This document shows, piece by piece, positions 6,594-42,657 of a stretch of 64,000 nucleotides of DNA. The translations under genes and the position numbers were made by a program. How positions within the stretch are numbered: position 1 is the stretch's first letter; each line of letters opens with the position of its first letter. The stretch comes from an uncultured Oscillibacter sp. (lineage in GTDB: Bacteria > Bacillota > Clostridia > Oscillospirales > Oscillospiraceae): the NCBI GenBank assembly GCA_964455915.1, contig CAYWAS010000001.1, positions 43,882 to 107,881 of the forward strand. The letters run 5' to 3'. The notes under the pieces are model-generated. The model ran no database searches. It was not told where the DNA came from and was given only the letters and a program-made list of their open reading frames with translations.

Positions 6594-6622
6594 CTTATTT
6601 TTTCACGACACACTGTCGATAA
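6594..6622 (+). promoter_or_regulatory. Putative sigma28 (FliA/SigD) promoter of the cheA operon
   Basis: -10 GTCGATAA at 6615-6622 with CTTATTTTT starting 21 bp upstream; same architecture as upstream of fliD and fliC. Confidence 0.6.
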
Positions 6623-6653: not shown

Positions 6654-8750
6654 ATGAGCAGCAATAATGATATGTTAGATGTTTATATCTACGAGGCAAA
6701 TGCGTTGCTGGAGCAGCTTGAAACGATCAATCTGGAATCCGAGCGCTCCAATACCTTCTCGCAGGATCAGGTCAATGAGATCTTCCGCATCATGCATACG
6801 ATCAAGGGTTCCTCTGCCATGATGGAGTTCGACTCCCTCGCCACGGTCTCCCATCGCATCGAGGATCTGTTCTTCCTGATCCGCGAGGGGACGATGGACG
6901 CGGTCCCCGCCGCCGACCGTCCCGCGCTGTTTGAGATGATGTTCCAGAGTGTGGACTTTTTCCGCACCGAGCTGGACCGGATCACAAACCAGCAGCCTCT
7001 TTCTAATGATATCGACAGTTTTCTGGAAAAAATTAATAGCCTGATCCAAAAAATTAAGGGCGACACAGCGGCGGAGGGCGACGCGTCCGCTGCCGCTCCC
7101 GCGGCCGCCGAGGCATCGTCCGACGAGGCCGGAAACGCAGATTTCCCCTATGAGCTGCGCGTCTTTTTCGACGAGGGCTGCGGCATGGAGAATCTGCGCG
7201 CATTTATGCTCGTCACCTCCATTCGGGACTTCTGCAGCGAGGCGGACTTCCTCTTTGAGCCGACCGCCGTTGAAAATGATGCCTCCACCGCCGAGCAGAT
7301 CATCAAGCAGGGTTTCCTCCTGCGCTTCCGCAACAAGGCGGACCGCGAGCAGGCGATCCCCGCCGTGCGCTCGTCCGGCTCGGTGAATTCCTATCAGCCC
7401 CACGACTATGCCCCGCCGGCGCGTCCTGCGGAGCCCGCTGCACAGGAATCTTCCTCCGCTGCACCTTCTGCGGCGGCTGCGGAGAAGGCTCCCGCCGCTC
7501 CCGCGGTTTCCGCTGCGCCCGCTCCGTCCGGCAGCGATGCTCCCTCTCCCGCAGCCACGCAGCATCAGAAGGAGAGTCTGATCAGCGTCAACCTGAGCAA
7601 GCTCGACCAACTCTCCGCGCTCGTCGGCGAGATCGTCATTACCGAGGCGATGGTCACCGCGTCGCCCGATCTCAAGGGTCTGGGCAATCTGGATTCGTTC
7701 GCCAAGTCCGCCCGCCAGCTCCGCAAGCTGACCGACGAGCTGCAAGATGTTTCCATGTCCCTGCGCATGATCCCCATTTCCAACACCTTCCAGAAAATGA
7801 ACCGCATCGTCCGCGACATGAGCAAGAAGCTCAACAAGAAGGCGACGCTGACGCTGATCGGCGCGGACACCGAGGTCGACAAGACCATCGTGGACAGCAT
7901 CGGCGATCCCATCATGCACATGATCCGCAACTCCATGGACCACGGCATTGAGGAGACCGAGGAGGAGCGCATCGCCGCGGGCAAGGATCCCGTCGGTGAG
8001 ATCACGCTCTCCGCGCAGGACACCGGAAGCGAGGTCATCATCACGATCCAGGACGACGGGCGCGGCGTGAACGACGAGGCGGTTTTGAAAAAGGCGATCA
8101 AGAACGGGCTCGCGAACCCCGATCTGGAATACTCGCACAAGGAGATCCTCAACTTCCTCCTCATGCCCGGGTTTTCCACCAACACGCAGGTCACCGAATA
8201 CTCCGGCCGCGGCGTCGGCATGGACGTGGTCAAGCGCAGCGTCGAAGATCTCGGCGGCTCGGTCAGCATTTCCAGCGAAGAGGGGCGCGGCATGACCACC
8301 GTGATGCGCATTCCCCTGACCATGGCCATTATGGACGGTATGGAGGTCTCTGTCGGCGACTCGCTCTTCACGATCCCCATCAACAATATCCTCCAGAGCC
8401 TGAAGGTCTCCGCCTCGGATATCCTGCACGATTCCGTCAACGGCGAGATGATCAAGATCAGAGAGCGCTACTATCCCATCATTCGCGCCAAGAATCACTA
8501 CTGCCTGCCCGACGGTGTCGATAACATCGAGGACGGCATTCTGATGTGGCTCGAGGCCGGTAATTGCAGCTACGCGCTTCTGGTGGATAAGCTTCTGGGC
8601 GAGCAGCAGATCGTGGTCAAGCCCCTGCCGAATTACATCAAAAATTACGACATTAAAAACTACGGCATTTCCGGCTGCAGCATCTTGGGCGACGGCAATA
8701 TCAGCATTATTCTTGATGTTGGCAACCTTTATGCCTCTGTCAATCATTGA
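6654..8750 (+). CDS. cheA: Chemotaxis histidine kinase CheA
   Basis: Hpt IFRIMHTIKGSS, N-box HMIRNSMDHGIE, DDGRG, GRGVGMDVV, C-terminal CheW-like P5 domain. Confidence 0.98.
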   Translation: MSSNNDMLDVYIYEANALLEQLETINLESERSNTFSQDQVNEIFRIMHTIKGSSAMMEFDSLATVSHRIEDLFFLIREGTMDAVPAADRPALFEMMFQSVDFFRTELDRITNQQPLSNDIDSFLEKINSLIQKIKGDTAAEGDASAAAPAAAEASSDEAGNADFPYELRVFFDEGCGMENLRAFMLVTSIRDFCSEADFLFEPTAVENDASTAEQIIKQGFLLRFRNKADREQAIPAVRSSGSVNSYQPHDYAPPARPAEPAAQESSSAAPSAAAAEKAPAAPAVSAAPAPSGSDAPSPAATQHQKESLISVNLSKLDQLSALVGEIVITEAMVTASPDLKGLGNLDSFAKSARQLRKLTDELQDVSMSLRMIPISNTFQKMNRIVRDMSKKLNKKATLTLIGADTEVDKTIVDSIGDPIMHMIRNSMDHGIEETEEERIAAGKDPVGEITLSAQDTGSEVIITIQDDGRGVNDEAVLKKAIKNGLANPDLEYSHKEILNFLLMPGFSTNTQVTEYSGRGVGMDVVKRSVEDLGGSVSISSEEGRGMTTVMRIPLTMAIMDGMEVSVGDSLFTIPINNILQSLKVSASDILHDSVNGEMIKIRERYYPIIRAKNHYCLPDGVDNIEDGILMWLEAGNCSYALLVDKLLGEQQIVVKPLPNYIKNYDIKNYGISGCSILGDGNISIILDVGNLYASVNH

Positions 8751-11564: not shown

Positions 11565-11864
11565 GTGCTGACATCTTCCAACTCTATTTCTTCTATCACG
11601 GCACCAAAGGTGCTCCCGGCTCATACCGTTCGAAGCGCCGCGACGAATCAAATCGCGCAGCGGTATGACAGCGTGAGCATTTCCGGCTGCAGCGGCAGTA
11701 AGGACCCCTCTTTCATGGGAATGGTGAGTCGTATCGCACAGGAAGTGCGTACATCGACCACAACTGCCGACATTCGTCAGCTTCGTCAGGCGGTCCAGTC
11801 CGGCAGCTATGCGCCGGATCCCTGTGAGATCGCGCGCAAGATGCTGTTCTTAGGGGAGGCATAA
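11565..11864 (+). CDS. flgM: Anti-sigma28 factor FlgM
   Basis: DSVSIS and IRQLRQAVQSGSYAPDPCEIARKML motifs; upstream of flgN-flgK-flgL. Confidence 0.85.
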   Translation: MLTSSNSISSITAPKVLPAHTVRSAATNQIAQRYDSVSISGCSGSKDPSFMGMVSRIAQEVRTSTTTADIRQLRQAVQSGSYAPDPCEIARKMLFLGEA

Positions 11865-16148: not shown

Positions 16149-16604
16149 TTGATCTACAAAACTCAGTATTTCGGCGAGATCGACTGTGACGAGTCCGAGC
16201 TCTTCCGCTTCCCTGCCGGACTGCCCGGATTTGAGAGCGAAACCGCCTTCCTCCTGATCCCCTTTGCCGAGAGTGGTGGAACCATGTTCAGCCTGCAAAG
16301 TGCTGTCACCTCCTCCCTTTCGTTCCTCGTGATGGATCCCTTCGATCTGCTGCCGGACTATGCGCCGGAGCTGACTGCCGCCGACCTGCAAAGCCTCGGC
16401 ACGAAGGAGCAGGGCGAGCTCTCCTTCTGCGTGCTCTGCGCCTGCAAGGATCCGATCGCGGAAAGCACAGTGAATCTGAGATGTCCGATCGCGCTTCACC
16501 TCGACGCGAAGCTCGGAAAGCAGATCATCATGGATACGGAGCGCTACGGTATGCATCATCGACTCGCTGAGTTCAGCCATCGGGAGGAGCACGATCCATG
16601 CTGA
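16149..16604 (+). CDS. fliW: Flagellar assembly factor / CsrA antagonist FliW
   Basis: FPAGLPGFE, LQS...LSFLVMDPF, TVNLRCPI motifs; overlaps csrA. Confidence 0.95.
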   Translation: MIYKTQYFGEIDCDESELFRFPAGLPGFESETAFLLIPFAESGGTMFSLQSAVTSSLSFLVMDPFDLLPDYAPELTAADLQSLGTKEQGELSFCVLCACKDPIAESTVNLRCPIALHLDAKLGKQIIMDTERYGMHHRLAEFSHREEHDPC

Positions 16605-16870
16605 TCCTACAACGCAAGGCCGGTCAGGCCGTTCATATCGGCGATGATGTCGTCGTCTCCGTCGTTTCGATCGACAGCAGCCGTGTGCGCCTGTCGATCG
16701 AAGCACCGAACCATATTTCCATTCTGCGCAGCGAGCTGGTCGAGGCAAAGCAAACCAACCGCGAATCCATTGCCGAGCCTGCCGCAGCATCGGCGCTGCT
16801 GTCGCTTCTGGAGCCAAAACAGGAGCCTTCCCCCGCCGACTCGTCCGATAAACCACCCCCCAAGCAATGA
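16598..16870 (+). CDS. csrA: Carbon storage regulator CsrA
   Basis: MLILQRKAGQAVHIGDDV...VRLSIEAP...ILRSEL. Confidence 0.95.
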   Translation: MLILQRKAGQAVHIGDDVVVSVVSIDSSRVRLSIEAPNHISILRSELVEAKQTNRESIAEPAAASALLSLLEPKQEPSPADSSDKPPPKQ

Positions 16871-18973: not shown

Positions 18974-20638
18974 TTACTGGAGGAGCTGCAGCACGCCCTG
19001 AGGAACAGCATTCGCCTGCGCGAGCATCGCCTGCGCGGACTGAATGAGAATGTTGTTCTTCGTGTAGGCCATCATCTCGTCGGCAACATCGGTGTCGCGG
19101 ATGGTGGACTCGGCGTCCTGAATGTTCTCGGTCATGACGCTCAGGTTATTCTGGGTGTGCTCGAGGCGGTTCTGGATCGCGCCGAGGTCACCTCTGGTGG
19201 AGGAGACGGAGTTGATGGCAGCCTTGATCTTATCGACCGCAGTGGCAGCGCCGTCCTGCGTGGAGATGTCCACGCCGCCAATGCCCAGAGAAGTAACATG
19301 CATATCGCCGATCTTCACAGCCATCTGGTTGAACTCGTCCGCGGTGTCGCCGATCTGCAGGGTCAGACCCTTGTCGCCCTTGGCAAAGGTCATATCGCCC
19401 TTGTAGACAATGCTGTCTGCATCGATGCCGGCAGCGGTGTTGGCGGCAGTAGCAACCTCAAACTTTTCACCGGTAACGCGGCTCACCTCTGCCGCCACCT
19501 TTGCGGCATCATTAGCAGCCACATAACCGGCATCGGCAGCCATCTTAATCAAGTGAACATCGTCAGATACAGACTCGAGCGTCTTCGCGTCCACATTGCT
19601 GTCCACCAGCATGAACTTGTGACCGTTGATCTCAAAGGTCGCCTTAGCCATGTTCTCCTCAGTGGCAGGCTTGTTGTCGGTAGTCTTGTCCAGCGCAACT
19701 ACCTTGCTCAAATCCAGGATCTGCATGGAGTCCATACCCTTGACCGGATTGGCAGCAATCGCACCAGCCGTCGAGCTGGCAGAGAAAGCAGAGTTGCCGG
19801 AATCACTGATACCCAGAGCGGTAATCTTAGCACCGTCAGCGCCAGCCACCTTGCTGGTAAACTGAATGGCATCGCTGACATTGGTAATCTCAAACGCGGA
19901 GGACAGAGCGCTGTCCTTCTTCAGCTCAGCAATAACAGCATTTGCAAGCTCCTTAGCCGTAGGCTTTTTGTTGGTGATATCGGCAATCGTATACTCTGTA
20001 CCATCGTCCGAAGCAAACACCGTGTCAGAGCTCGCCTTGAAATTGACAGTTTTGGACTTTTCCACACCATTTTCTTCCCAAGCTACAGTGTAAGAAAATG
20101 TCTGGCTTGCTGCCATAGCATTGCTAGCAGCAGTAAATGCACCGCTCTTCGTGGAAGCTGTGACCACCTTGCTGGCGTTGAAGGAGATATTGCCGTCGAT
20201 GTTCCCCTTGCCCGCGAGGGAGCCGTCCATCAGCTTGATGCCGTTGAAGTTGGCGCTGTCCGCGATACGGTCGATTTCGGTGCAGAGCGCGGTGACTTCC
20301 TTCTGCAGGTTCGCGCGGTCGACCTCGTTATCATAGGTGCCGTTGGCAGACTGAGTCGCCAGATAGCTCATACGGTTGAGCATATCCTGGACTTCCTGCA
20401 TCGCACCCTCAGCGGTCTTGACGAGGCTGATGCCGTCCTTCACGTTCTTGCTCGCGGCGCTCAGGCCGGAGATCTGGGCACGCATCTTCTCGGAGATGGC
20501 GAGACCGGCAGCGTCGTCACCGGCGCGGTTGATCTTGTAGCCGGAGGAGAGCTTCTCGAGGTTCTTGCTCAGAGCAGAGGTGTTGTTGTTGTAGTTACGG
20601 TAGGCATTCATTGCCATAATATTGTGCTGAATTCTCAT
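18974..20638 (-). CDS. fliC: Flagellin
   Basis: MRIQHNIMAMNAYR...LEKLSSGYKINRAGDDAAGLAISEKMRAQI; C-terminus GAIQNRLEHT...AQAMLAQAN...VLQLLQ. Confidence 0.99.
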   Translation of the reverse strand: MRIQHNIMAMNAYRNYNNNTSALSKNLEKLSSGYKINRAGDDAAGLAISEKMRAQISGLSAASKNVKDGISLVKTAEGAMQEVQDMLNRMSYLATQSANGTYDNEVDRANLQKEVTALCTEIDRIADSANFNGIKLMDGSLAGKGNIDGNISFNASKVVTASTKSGAFTAASNAMAASQTFSYTVAWEENGVEKSKTVNFKASSDTVFASDDGTEYTIADITNKKPTAKELANAVIAELKKDSALSSAFEITNVSDAIQFTSKVAGADGAKITALGISDSGNSAFSASSTAGAIAANPVKGMDSMQILDLSKVVALDKTTDNKPATEENMAKATFEINGHKFMLVDSNVDAKTLESVSDDVHLIKMAADAGYVAANDAAKVAAEVSRVTGEKFEVATAANTAAGIDADSIVYKGDMTFAKGDKGLTLQIGDTADEFNQMAVKIGDMHVTSLGIGGVDISTQDGAATAVDKIKAAINSVSSTRGDLGAIQNRLEHTQNNLSVMTENIQDAESTIRDTDVADEMMAYTKNNILIQSAQAMLAQANAVPQGVLQLLQ

Positions 20639-20872
20639 TACTATTGCATCCTTTCAATAATAAAATAGTGCGGGGGTAAATGGTTTACGCGCCGCAACAT
20701 CCTGCCTTGGCGCGTTTGTTCACGCTCGGAGCCGGACGCCGTGGCCTTTGGCGACCTTCCCTTCCCGTGAACGGGTGTATTCCCGCCGGTCCTCGTGGGG
20801 CCAGAAGAAACCGATCTTGCTTGCCGGAGCGGCAAAGCCGCGCCGACGGTGACCTCAAAAAAGCTTTTTCTA
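20639..20872 (-). promoter_or_regulatory. Long structured flagellin 5' leader with two AGGAUG CsrA-type sites
   Basis: AGGATG at 20698-20703 inside the ACGCGCC...GGCGCGT stem (20687-20715) and at 20647-20652 overlapping the SD; fliW-csrA are in the window. Transcription start inferred from the promoter. Confidence 0.7.
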
Positions 20873-20878
20873 TGGTTT

Positions 20879-20906
20879 ATATCGGTCGTAATTTGGAAAA
20901 AATAAG
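20879..20906 (-). promoter_or_regulatory. Putative sigma28 promoter of fliC
   Basis: -10 ACCGATAT (20886-20879) with CTTATTTTTT starting 20 bp upstream. Confidence 0.7.
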
Positions 20907-35184: not shown

Positions 35185-35213
35185 TTATCGGCATCTGTTA
35201 TAATAAAAATAAG
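35185..35213 (-). promoter_or_regulatory. Putative sigma28 promoter of the fliD operon
   Basis: Consensus -10 GCCGATAA (35192-35185) with CTTATTTTT starting 21 bp upstream. Confidence 0.75.
35196..35204 (+). promoter_or_regulatory. Extended -10 SigA element for parA, overlapping the divergent fliD promoter
   Basis: TG-T-TATAAT, 48 bp before the TTG start. Confidence 0.55.
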
Positions 35214-35251: not shown

Positions 35252-36034
35252 TTGGCTAAGATCATTACTGTGACCAATCAGAAGGGCGGCGTCGGGAAAA
35301 CGACCATTACAGCAGCCCTTATTGCCGAGCTCCAGCGCAGGGGTGCGCGTGTTCTGGGCGTGGACATCGACCCGCAGGGCAACCTCGGCTTCTCGTTCGG
35401 GCTGAACATCGAGGACGGGCTTTCCGTTTACGATGTCCTGACCGGAAAATGCTCGACCGCCGAAGCGATCGCGCACACGGACTACGGTGACATTCTGCAC
35501 ACGGACATCATGCTCTCGGCCTTTGTCTCGGGAGACAGCGGCTTCCACACGAGCAAGGACACCATGCTCTCGTACCATCTCGATCAGGTCAAAAGCGATT
35601 ACGACTTCATTTTCATCGACACGCCGCCGTCCCTGAATATTCTGACGATCAACGCCTATGTCGCCTCGTCGGAGCTCATCATTCCGATGAACGCCGAGGT
35701 TTTGAGTCTGGTCGGCATTTCGCAGATCCAGGACACCGTTGAGGCGATCCGCAAAAGCTCCAATCCGAATCTGAAGGTCTGCGGCATCGTTATGAACAAA
35801 TACAACGCGCGCCTGATCTCTCACCGTGAGATCCTGGACATGGCGGAGCAGCTCGCCGAGCAGATGGACACGAGGGTCTTCCCTGCCAAGATCCGAAACG
35901 GCATCGATGTCGCGACCGCACCTGCCCACGGGCAGAGCGTTGTGACCTACCGCCCGAAGTCGAATCCGGCGATGGACCTTCGCAAGCTCGTCGACGCGGT
36001 CGCAGGCGACCGATTCTCCCGCACAAGAAAATAA
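35252..36034 (+). CDS. Orphan ParA/Soj-family ATPase
   Basis: Deviant Walker A NQKGGVGKTT, DIDPQGN, IDTPPSL; no parB in the window. Confidence 0.92.
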   Translation: MAKIITVTNQKGGVGKTTITAALIAELQRRGARVLGVDIDPQGNLGFSFGLNIEDGLSVYDVLTGKCSTAEAIAHTDYGDILHTDIMLSAFVSGDSGFHTSKDTMLSYHLDQVKSDYDFIFIDTPPSLNILTINAYVASSELIIPMNAEVLSLVGISQIQDTVEAIRKSSNPNLKVCGIVMNKYNARLISHREILDMAEQLAEQMDTRVFPAKIRNGIDVATAPAHGQSVVTYRPKSNPAMDLRKLVDAVAGDRFSRTRK

Positions 36035-41808: not shown

Positions 41809-42657
41809 TCACCGGTTCATCGGTTCCGCGCGGGAACCGCTCAGATACGGCTCCATATATCTGTGCAGCTTTTCAATGGCTTTTGCATGGATCTGTGAGA
41901 TCCGCGGGGGCGTCAGGTCCATGACCTGCGCGATCTCGTTGAGCTGCAAGTCCCGCTCATAATGCAGGGACAAAACGAGCTGCTCGTTTTTCCGCAGGGA
42001 CGCGATGCCCTCCTCCAATACACTCTGCAGCTCACGCCGCTGCAATATCGCCTCCGGATAGCTGTCCGGATCTGCGGGCAGAATGTCGTACAAAAAGACC
42101 TTCCCGTCTGTCTCCATGCGGGATAAGTGTATCCCCTCGTCCAGCGGCAGGACCTTTTTCAGTGCCGCGTCCTTCAGCCCCTTCCGGTAGCGCTCCTCCG
42201 AAATGTTCATGAAGTCCACCATTTCCGCCGTGGTGGGCGTGCGCCCGATCTCACCGGTGAGCGTCTCCCGCGCAGTATCGATCTCCTTCATGCGCCGCCG
42301 CGCCGAGCGCGAGACCCAGTCCTGCTTTCTCACCAGATCGATGATCATTCCGCGCAGGCGCTTCGATGCAAAGGTCTCGAACTTTACACCCTTGTCCGGA
42401 TCGAACTTGTCGATCACCGCAAGGAGCGTCAGGATCCCCTCGCTGATCACATCTTCGATCTGCGCGAAATCGCTGTAAAACGCTCTTGTTTGCAGCGCGA
42501 TCGACTTGATCAGATGCTCATAGCGCAGGACGAGCGGCCAGCGCAGCGCCTCGTTTCCCGTTTCCTTGTATGCACGCATGAGCGTGTCCGTGTCCATTCC
42601 CTCGATCTCTGCTTCTGTGTAGCCGGTGTTGGTGTCAAGCGCTATCTGCTCACCCAT
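41809..42657 (-). CDS. fliA: RNA polymerase sigma28 factor FliA/SigD
   Basis: KFDPDKGVKFETFASKRLRGMIID..RKQDW; region 4 EQLVLSLHY...EIAQVM...RISQIH. Start placed at ATG 42657. Confidence 0.93.
   Translation of the reverse strand: MGEQIALDTNTGYTEAEIEGMDTDTLMRAYKETGNEALRWPLVLRYEHLIKSIALQTRAFYSDFAQIEDVISEGILTLLAVIDKFDPDKGVKFETFASKRLRGMIIDLVRKQDWVSRSARRRMKEIDTARETLTGEIGRTPTTAEMVDFMNISEERYRKGLKDAALKKVLPLDEGIHLSRMETDGKVFLYDILPADPDSYPEAILQRRELQSVLEEGIASLRKNEQLVLSLHYERDLQLNEIAQVMDLTPPRISQIHAKAIEKLHRYMEPYLSGSRAEPMNR

Follow-up and report, generated by a model that had tools for sequence, protein, structure and literature searches.

Late flagellar promoters and FliA of the window

The window, meaning the whole stretch of 64,000 nucleotides analyzed here, carries late flagellar and chemotaxis genes behind three sites of the sigma-28 type, P_cheA, P_fliC, and P_fliD, and also the gene for the sigma-28 factor FliA. 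The gene run 3' of P_cheA, on the same plus strand, extends from 6654 to ∼17072 and was assigned by Pfam as cheA-cheW-cheR-cheB-hup-flgM-flgN-flgK-flgL-DUF6470-fliW-csrA-yjfB, with hup coding for HU. It includes flgM (11565 to 11864, plus strand; PF04316, E = 5.7e-7, above the cut-off), so the cognate anti-sigma factor of FliA is encoded within the run. Flagellin was identified by Pfam downstream of P_fliC, with its ATG at 20638. Pfam likewise placed fliD (35089 to 32318, minus strand) and then fliS (32287 to 31904, minus strand) behind P_fliD, which is predicted to drive both genes and the next ORF. Filament, cap, hook-associated, chemotaxis, and flgM genes are all found downstream by Pfam, and since the sites precede the cheA run, flagellin, and fliD-fliS, the three promoters together could cover the whole late gene set. 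Relaxed scans of the window's own genome gave no site beyond these three and one antisense match in cheA, and no separate promoter was seen in them ahead of flgM or an MCP gene.

Each promoter consists of the nine-base block CTTATTTTT, a short spacer, and a -10 octamer. P_cheA (CTTATTTTT-TCACGACACACT-GTCGATAA) lies at 6594 to 6622 on the plus strand, with the -35 box at 6594 to 6602, a 12-nt spacer at 6603 to 6614, the -10 element GTCGATAA at 6615 to 6622, and a predicted transcription start at ∼6630. P_fliC (CTTATTTTT-TCCAAATTACG-ACCGATAT), on the minus strand at 20906 to 20879, has its -35 box at 20906 to 20898, an 11-nt spacer at 20897 to 20887, ACCGATAT at 20886 to 20879, and a predicted start at ∼20871. 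The fliC leader would therefore span ∼230 nt (20639 to 20871) compared to ∼90 to 160 nt in relatives; fliW and csrA (16149 to 16870, plus strand; Pfam) are encoded near fliC, making it likely that flagellin translation is under CsrA control. P_fliD (CTTATTTTT-ATTATAACAGAT-GCCGATAA) occupies 35213 to 35185 on the minus strand, with the -35 box at 35213 to 35205, a 12-nt spacer at 35204 to 35193, GCCGATAA at 35192 to 35185, and a predicted start at ∼35177.

The octamers GCCGATAA, GTCGATAA, and ACCGATAT all conform to the sigma-28 -10 element (GCCGATAA/T, a CGATA core with an extended GC), and the spacers of 12, 11, and 12 nt agree with the 11 to 12 nt that should separate the octamer from a 9-nt -35 block. 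This is the same register as that of the canonical promoters in relatives whose FliA retains the serine discussed below. The -35 box itself is not canonical: where TAAA (TAAAGTTT) would stand 15 nt 5' of the octamer, the window has TATT or TTAT. The composite pattern CTTATTTTT-N11/12-(G/A)(C/T)CGATA(A/T) matches three times in the window, upstream of cheA, fliC, and fliD, against 0.00 matches in 100 dinucleotide-preserving shuffles. When the whole assembly was scanned (1.9 Mb, 108 contigs, 61% G+C), the matches again numbered exactly three, all of them P_cheA, P_fliC, and P_fliD, while the canonical form TAAA-N14-16-[GA]CCGATAW had no match anywhere in the 1.9-Mb genome. A preliminary description of this DNA had proposed that three late-gene sites share an upstream box ahead of a canonical -10 element, that none has TAAA at the canonical position, and that they are sigma-28-type promoters with a noncanonical -35; the scans confirmed the first two points and support the third. 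Judged by their sequence and gene context, the three sites are very probably functional sigma-28 promoters, and we infer that they depend on FliA.

The fliA gene (41809 to 42657, minus strand) encodes 282 residues starting at MGEQ. Pfam recognizes Sigma70_r2, Sigma70_r3, and Sigma70_r4 (PF04542, PF04539, and PF04545, i.e., sigma-70 regions 2, 3, and 4), the composition of a group 3 sigma factor without region 1.1, and the best solved relatives in the PDB are WhiG and FliA. The protein reads ...QVMDLTPPRISQIHAKAIEKL, also quoted as ...NEIAQVMDLTPPRISQIHAKAIEKL. Translation places D247-L-T-P-P-R-I-S-Q-I-H257, with which the region 4.2 recognition helix starts, at 41919 to 41887 on the minus strand, as the preliminary description had read it (DLTPPRISQIH at about 41885 to 41920), and the alignment agrees with the translation that both residues named there are substituted. 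Canonical helices read (E/T)S-R-(V/I)-S-Q-(I/L)-H, with a serine and a glutamine that contact bases, whereas this one reads PP-R-I-S-Q-I-H. HMMER sets "dltPPrisQih" under "gvsESrvsQlh" of chain 9wsm_F, and from the S/Q spacing alone we infer that PDB 9WSM and the Pseudomonas aeruginosa sigma-28 complex of PMC12784957 are the same work. Since the aligned stretch holds only one Ser-Gln pair four residues apart, P251 must take the place of S224 of the P. aeruginosa protein; the glutamine is retained (Q255, equivalent to Q228) in a helix otherwise like the xS-R-V-S-Q-L-H of that complex.

With its ATG at 42657, fliA begins within the final codons of flhA, whose stop is at 42650 to 42652, and flhF and flhG are absent between the two genes. 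The Bacillus-type gene order differs, with flhF/flhG between flhA and fliA.

The variant -35 box in related genomes

All of the best 120 FliA homologues listed, which are 56 to 99% identical to that of the window, read xPRISQIH at the helix start (EP in 81, AP in 31, and PP in 8); those named at source come from Oscillibacter or Oscillospiraceae and are called FliA/WhiG family or sigma-70 family. We collected 80 loci with 10-kb flanks from Oscillibacter, Flavonifractor, Pseudoflavonifractor, and unnamed Oscillospiraceae, every one with an xP FliA (EP 76, AP 2, PP 1, and KP 1). A syntenic fliD promoter was present in 67 of the 80, ∼6.7 to 7.5 kb downstream of fliA and ahead of fliD, built of a -35 block, a 12-nt spacer, and G(T/C)CGATAA. 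The block was CTTATTTTT in 33 cases, CTTAAGTTT in 22, and CTTAACTTT in 6, or else a close variant. Over these related loci, TTAW-N15/16-G[CT]CGATAW occurred 68 times and the TAAA form twice.

The promoter had at first been called locus-specific, which was wrong: the same CTTATTTTT fliD promoter stands in many Oscillibacter genomes with an EP-type FliA, and the 67 syntenic copies rule out a motif peculiar to one genome. The Oscillibacter version, CTCTTATTTTTATTATACTATATGTCGATAA, carries a nine-base box identical to that of the window even though its FliA reads EP, so the first proline of the window's PP is irrelevant to the box. The candidate determinant is the change of the second residue from Ser to Pro (or Ala); the first position tolerates E, A, P, G, K, and H. 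The PP dipeptide as a special feature was rejected, given that EP, AP, KP, and GP FliAs have the same promoters and that a genome with a PP FliA (G047) uses TTAAC boxes as well as TTATT.

Genome-wide counts give the same picture. Across 11 xP genomes, TTAWNTT-N12-15-YCGATAW gave 66 matches against 25 for the reversed control, most of them with the full GCCGATA(A/T), and the TAAANTT form gave 7 against 9. A few canonical-looking TAAAGTTT-N-GCCGATAA sites were nevertheless present in xP genomes. Base composition was ruled out as the source of the shift, TTAA and TAAA being equal in A+T and the reversed-pattern controls being low. Within the GTDB genus of the window, fliA-bearing genomes had 1 to 6 matches (3 to 6 in five of the seven) against none for the control, and the genomes of the same genus that lack fliA (G008 and G011) had no match. 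A large Oscillospirales FliA clade and two other lineages share the general form TTA(A/T)NTTT, which we consider likely, with good confidence from these comparisons, to be the functional -35 element of the clade.

In Pro-type genomes, several copies of flagellin lack a CGATA -10 element within 400 nt (L216 to L218 and L220; G284, G247, G262, and G134). One of these copies, in G134, is preceded by CTTATTTTT-N11-GCCGAAAC, in which a perfect variant -35 is followed by a degenerate -10.

Co-variation of region 4.2 and the -35 box

We typed the 66 FliA-bearing genomes among 301 sampled from the order by the dipeptide that precedes R-(I/V)-S-Q-(I/L)-H, and flagellin promoters were read by the CGATA anchor alone, with no assumption on the -35 box. 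Every readable fliC promoter in the 18 Ser-type genomes (16 ES and 2 QS) had (C/A)TAAAG, its T standing 21 nt, and once 22 nt, ahead of the C of CGATA. A genome of PS type (G292), whose fliC promoter was unreadable, had mostly TAAA by genome-wide pattern matches. In the same register, the Pro-type fliC boxes were GTTATTCTT, ATTATCTTC, CTTAATTTT (two genomes), ATTAAGTGA, and CTTAAGTTT, the xP readings being GTTATTC, ATTATCT, CTTAATT (two genomes), ATTAAGT, and CTTAAGT; the HA genomes and a GP genome of the window's genus had GTTAATTT (GTTAATT) at fliC. As CTTAAGTTT is one base apart from the canonical CTAAAGTTT, the most economical account of these boxes would be an A-to-T substitution at the second base of TAAA and not a shifted box. 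The register is ambiguous by one base, with TTA at -21/-22 or TA at -20/-21.

Dipeptide and -35 type were concordant in 41 of the 43 typed genomes. Two lineages depart from a simple code. One is the AS type (G128 and G323), which keeps the serine yet uses TTATTTT or TTAATTT (3 matches against none for the control); the other is a PA genome (G059) with CTAATG, a box of the TAATG type. The PA genome has two promoters with CTAATGTTT (L238 and G059:C10:95083), in which the third A of TAAA, not the first, has become T, possibly a second kind of -35 variant. FliA was not found in one further genome (G412), which is therefore untyped. Because the AS lineage uses TTA and the PA lineage TAATG, the link between residue and base is not one-to-one. 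The proposal of a co-evolved, lineage-specific sigma-28 specificity thus stands as far as the comparative co-variation of region 4.2 and the -35 box is concerned, which these sequences lead us to favor, and falls short where it implies one residue for one base.

A maximum-likelihood tree of FliA unites the Oscillospiraceae Pro, Ala, and Val forms, 25 rows in all, in a single clade (SH-aLRT 95). The sister of this clade (G306) is of ES type with a canonical promoter. Proline recurs in a distant part of the tree, where G315 (EP) is sister to G144 (ES) with a support of 99 to 100: all four genome pattern matches of G315 are TTA, three of them, near fliC, reading TTAAGTT, and those of G144 are mostly TAAA. 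A third Pro form comes from a phylum-wide search with a DNA pattern for P-R-(I/V)-S-Q-x-H, which returned mostly noise and only two new FliAs, G366 and G453, both of family f67, another family of the phylum. Their fliC boxes are CTTAATTAA and CTTAACTTC (CTTAATT and CTTAACT). With f67 added, the starred branches of the tree require at least three Ser-to-Pro origins, each with TTA promoters. An AU test rejected a single clade of all non-Ser FliAs at p = 4e-65, a value that is indicative only, the group having been defined post hoc. Before f67 was added there were three independent contrasts, two of them concordant, too few for significance in a sign test. The Ser/Pro column is the only column of the sigma-4 alignment that tracks the -35 type in all three lineages, and many other FliA columns separate the big xP clade from the rest.

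In the FliA tree (L001 to L012 and L076 to L215), the Pro-type clade cuts across the GTDB families f1, f14, f18, and f30, and f1 also holds an ES-type FliA (G144). The FliA of the window is nearer to Oscillibacter FliAs (58% identity) than to FliAs from the window's GTDB genus (53% and ∼42%). These mismatches suggest that flagellar loci have been transferred laterally or that the order has two flagellar lineages.

Proposed recognition of the variant box and alternative explanations

Our preferred reading is that the three sites are late promoters read by FliA and that their variant -35 box has been shifted by loss of the recognition-helix serine; we assign it a probability of roughly 0.65. RNA polymerase with FliA would read the sites as late (class III-type) flagellar promoters, with FlgM restraining FliA. 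The -10 part, (G/A)(C/T)CGATA(A/T), is the sigma-28 element in its usual form, which sigma region 2 reads. What varies is the -35 part, C-T-T-A-T-T-T-T-T here and C/G-T-T-A-(A/T)-N-T-T-T in the wider clade, with the first T 21 to 22 nt before the C of CGATA, in place of the usual C-T-A-A-A-G-T-T-T, and the constant difference is A to T at the second base of TAAA. The variant goes with replacement of Ser by Pro (Ala in one sub-clade) at the start of the helix xS-R-V/I-S-Q-I/L-H. Losing the serine hydroxyl would remove a hydrogen-bonding contact and gaining a small hydrophobic side chain would shift the preference at the changed base, which adjoins the C-T pair touched by serine, likely through a contact with the methyl group of a thymine there; the whole late regulon would then have followed the residue change. 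A helix accommodates proline in its first turn without structural difficulty. That the proline is itself causal for the shift we regard as an even bet. The broader statement, that one Ser-to-Pro change switched the -35 box from C-T-A-A-A to C-T-T-A-A/T at least three independent times in the phylum (Oscillospirales and one other family), is tentative and falls a little short of even odds.

Altered-specificity mutants of E. coli sigma-70 region 4.2 are known at R584, E585, and R588. Presumably R584 and E585 align with the E and S of FliA, so that acceptance of -35 bases hinges on the same two positions of the helix. Those mutants were made in the laboratory in a housekeeping sigma factor, whereas here a natural, repeated substitution affects a group 3 sigma factor whose entire regulon has adjusted. 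Among ECF sigma factors, sigma-4 domains and -35 boxes co-vary between groups. The likeness is one of natural co-variation, but theirs separates many paralogous regulons, unlike the present case, in which an orthologous and otherwise very conserved pair of sigma factor and promoter has shifted.

Structural work bears directly on the serine. The 2026 cryo-EM open complex of P. aeruginosa sigma-28 shows S224 and Q228 of region 4.2 in base-specific contact with the -35 element TCTAAAG, S224 touching -35C and the template-strand A at -34, and both S224A and Q228A reduce transcription and flagellation (PMC12784957). The fliC promoter of that species reads (-36)TCTAAAG(-30) and (-15)GCCGATAA(-8) (PMC12784957). 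More generally, TAAA-N15-CCGATAT is the bacterial sigma-28 consensus, and the same TAAA box is given for flagellin genes of Butyrivibrio, Roseburia, Eubacterium rectale, and E. siraeum (PMC3720852). Canonical FliA/SigD/WhiG promoters, TAAA(GTTT)-N15(N11)-GCCGATAA, which include flagellin promoters of Lachnospiraceae (PMC3720852), have the -10 octamer and the spacing in common with the window sites, as well as late flagellar and chemotaxis targets, the FliA-FlgM pair, and also the flanking C-T and the 3' TTT of the -35. The window sites differ in the T at the second base of TAAA and in the T at positions four and five of TAAAG (TTATT). With a noncanonical -35 box and no base-contacting serine, the promoters and their FliA are a variant of the known sigma-28 system. 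The literature searched gave no description of a TTA-type sigma-28 -35 or of the Ser-to-Pro substitution, an absence that is not proof of novelty.

TAAA-N15-GCCGATAA is treated as a near-universal signature of late flagellar genes and is widely used for regulon annotation. Searches with the canonical pattern miss the flagellin promoters of a large group of gut Oscillospiraceae (Oscillibacter, Flavonifractor, Pseudoflavonifractor, and many uncultured genera), commensals whose flagellins are immunologically relevant, so that knowing how they are switched is useful. Convergent Ser-to-Pro changes at a residue seen to read the -35 turn a structural observation into a natural experiment, a test of one residue against one base. 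If the broader statement of at least three independent switches is true, it would provide a simple rule linking residue to base in a group 3 sigma factor and natural sigma-28/promoter pairs, maybe partly orthogonal to the canonical one, as possible parts for synthetic circuits.

The strongest alternative is that recognition has been relaxed and not re-tuned: with the serine gone, bases at -35 would no longer be read, promoters would drift toward a T-rich, AT-rich upstream tract that helps through DNA shape or contact with alpha-CTD or the zinc-binding domain, and promoter identity would come from the strong extended -10 element. The E. coli sigma-28 complex, which makes weak backbone contacts at -35 and relies on the beta-prime zinc-binding domain instead (bioRxiv 10.1101/2020.01.02.893370), fits this account and implies that base reading by this helix may not be general. 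So do the variable box positions 4 (A/T) and 5 (T/G/C) and the AS lineage, which has TTA although its serine is kept. Drift of this sort is hard to reconcile with a T-T-A register fixed in dozens of genomes and at several unrelated promoters per genome, with the lack of TAAA enrichment in xP genomes (7 against 9, compared to 66 against 25 for the TTA form) at an A+T content equal to that of TTAA, and with the sisters G315 and G144, which differ by exactly one base of the box. We regard relaxed reading as unlikely.

Less probable still is a real, clade-specific variant set by other sigma-4 residues, by core RNA polymerase, or by an accessory factor, with the Ser-to-Pro change as a passenger. 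The two exceptions, AS with TTA and PA with TAATG, and the many other FliA columns that set the big xP clade apart speak for it. All three independent Ser-to-Pro origins go with TTA, though, no other sigma-4 column tracks all three lineages, and the residue is a documented base contact (PMC12784957). Finally, a role of CTTATTTTT as the target of another DNA-binding regulator, or as part of overlapping divergent promoters, and not as a -35 box, is very improbable: the conserved P_fliD spacer does overlap a divergent TGTTATAAT promoter, and P_fliC and the intragenic site in cheA do contain AATTTTTTCCA(G)AAA, but the box keeps a fixed 11 to 12 nt from a sigma-28 -10 in promoters of unrelated surroundings (cheA, fliC, fliD, and those of relatives) and occupies exactly the canonical -35 register. 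The stretch AATTTTTTCCA(G)AAA may resemble a CodY-type box.

The intragenic site, TTAATTTTTTCCAGAAAACTGTCGATAT (7009 to 7036, minus strand), lies antisense inside cheA and is the only other match in the genome to TTAWTTT-N12-15-CGATAW, a pattern whose reversed control also gave one match. It sits in a locally A+T-rich patch of the coding region and may, as a candidate fourth site, be an intragenic FliA promoter. Such promoters have been described in E. coli.

The divergent element TGTTATAAT (35196 to 35204, plus strand), read by eye inside the P_fliD spacer, is a perfect extended -10 of housekeeping type facing a parA-like gene (TTG at 35252, AGGAGG at ∼35239, and ParA-type Pfam matches). P_fliD gave no match with a sigma-70 promoter scanner. 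Of the 67 related fliD promoters, 66 have a TATA(A/G/T)T hexamer on the other strand of the spacer, which would account for the conservation of the spacer, and P_fliD and the divergent promoter, which overlap physically, may exclude each other.
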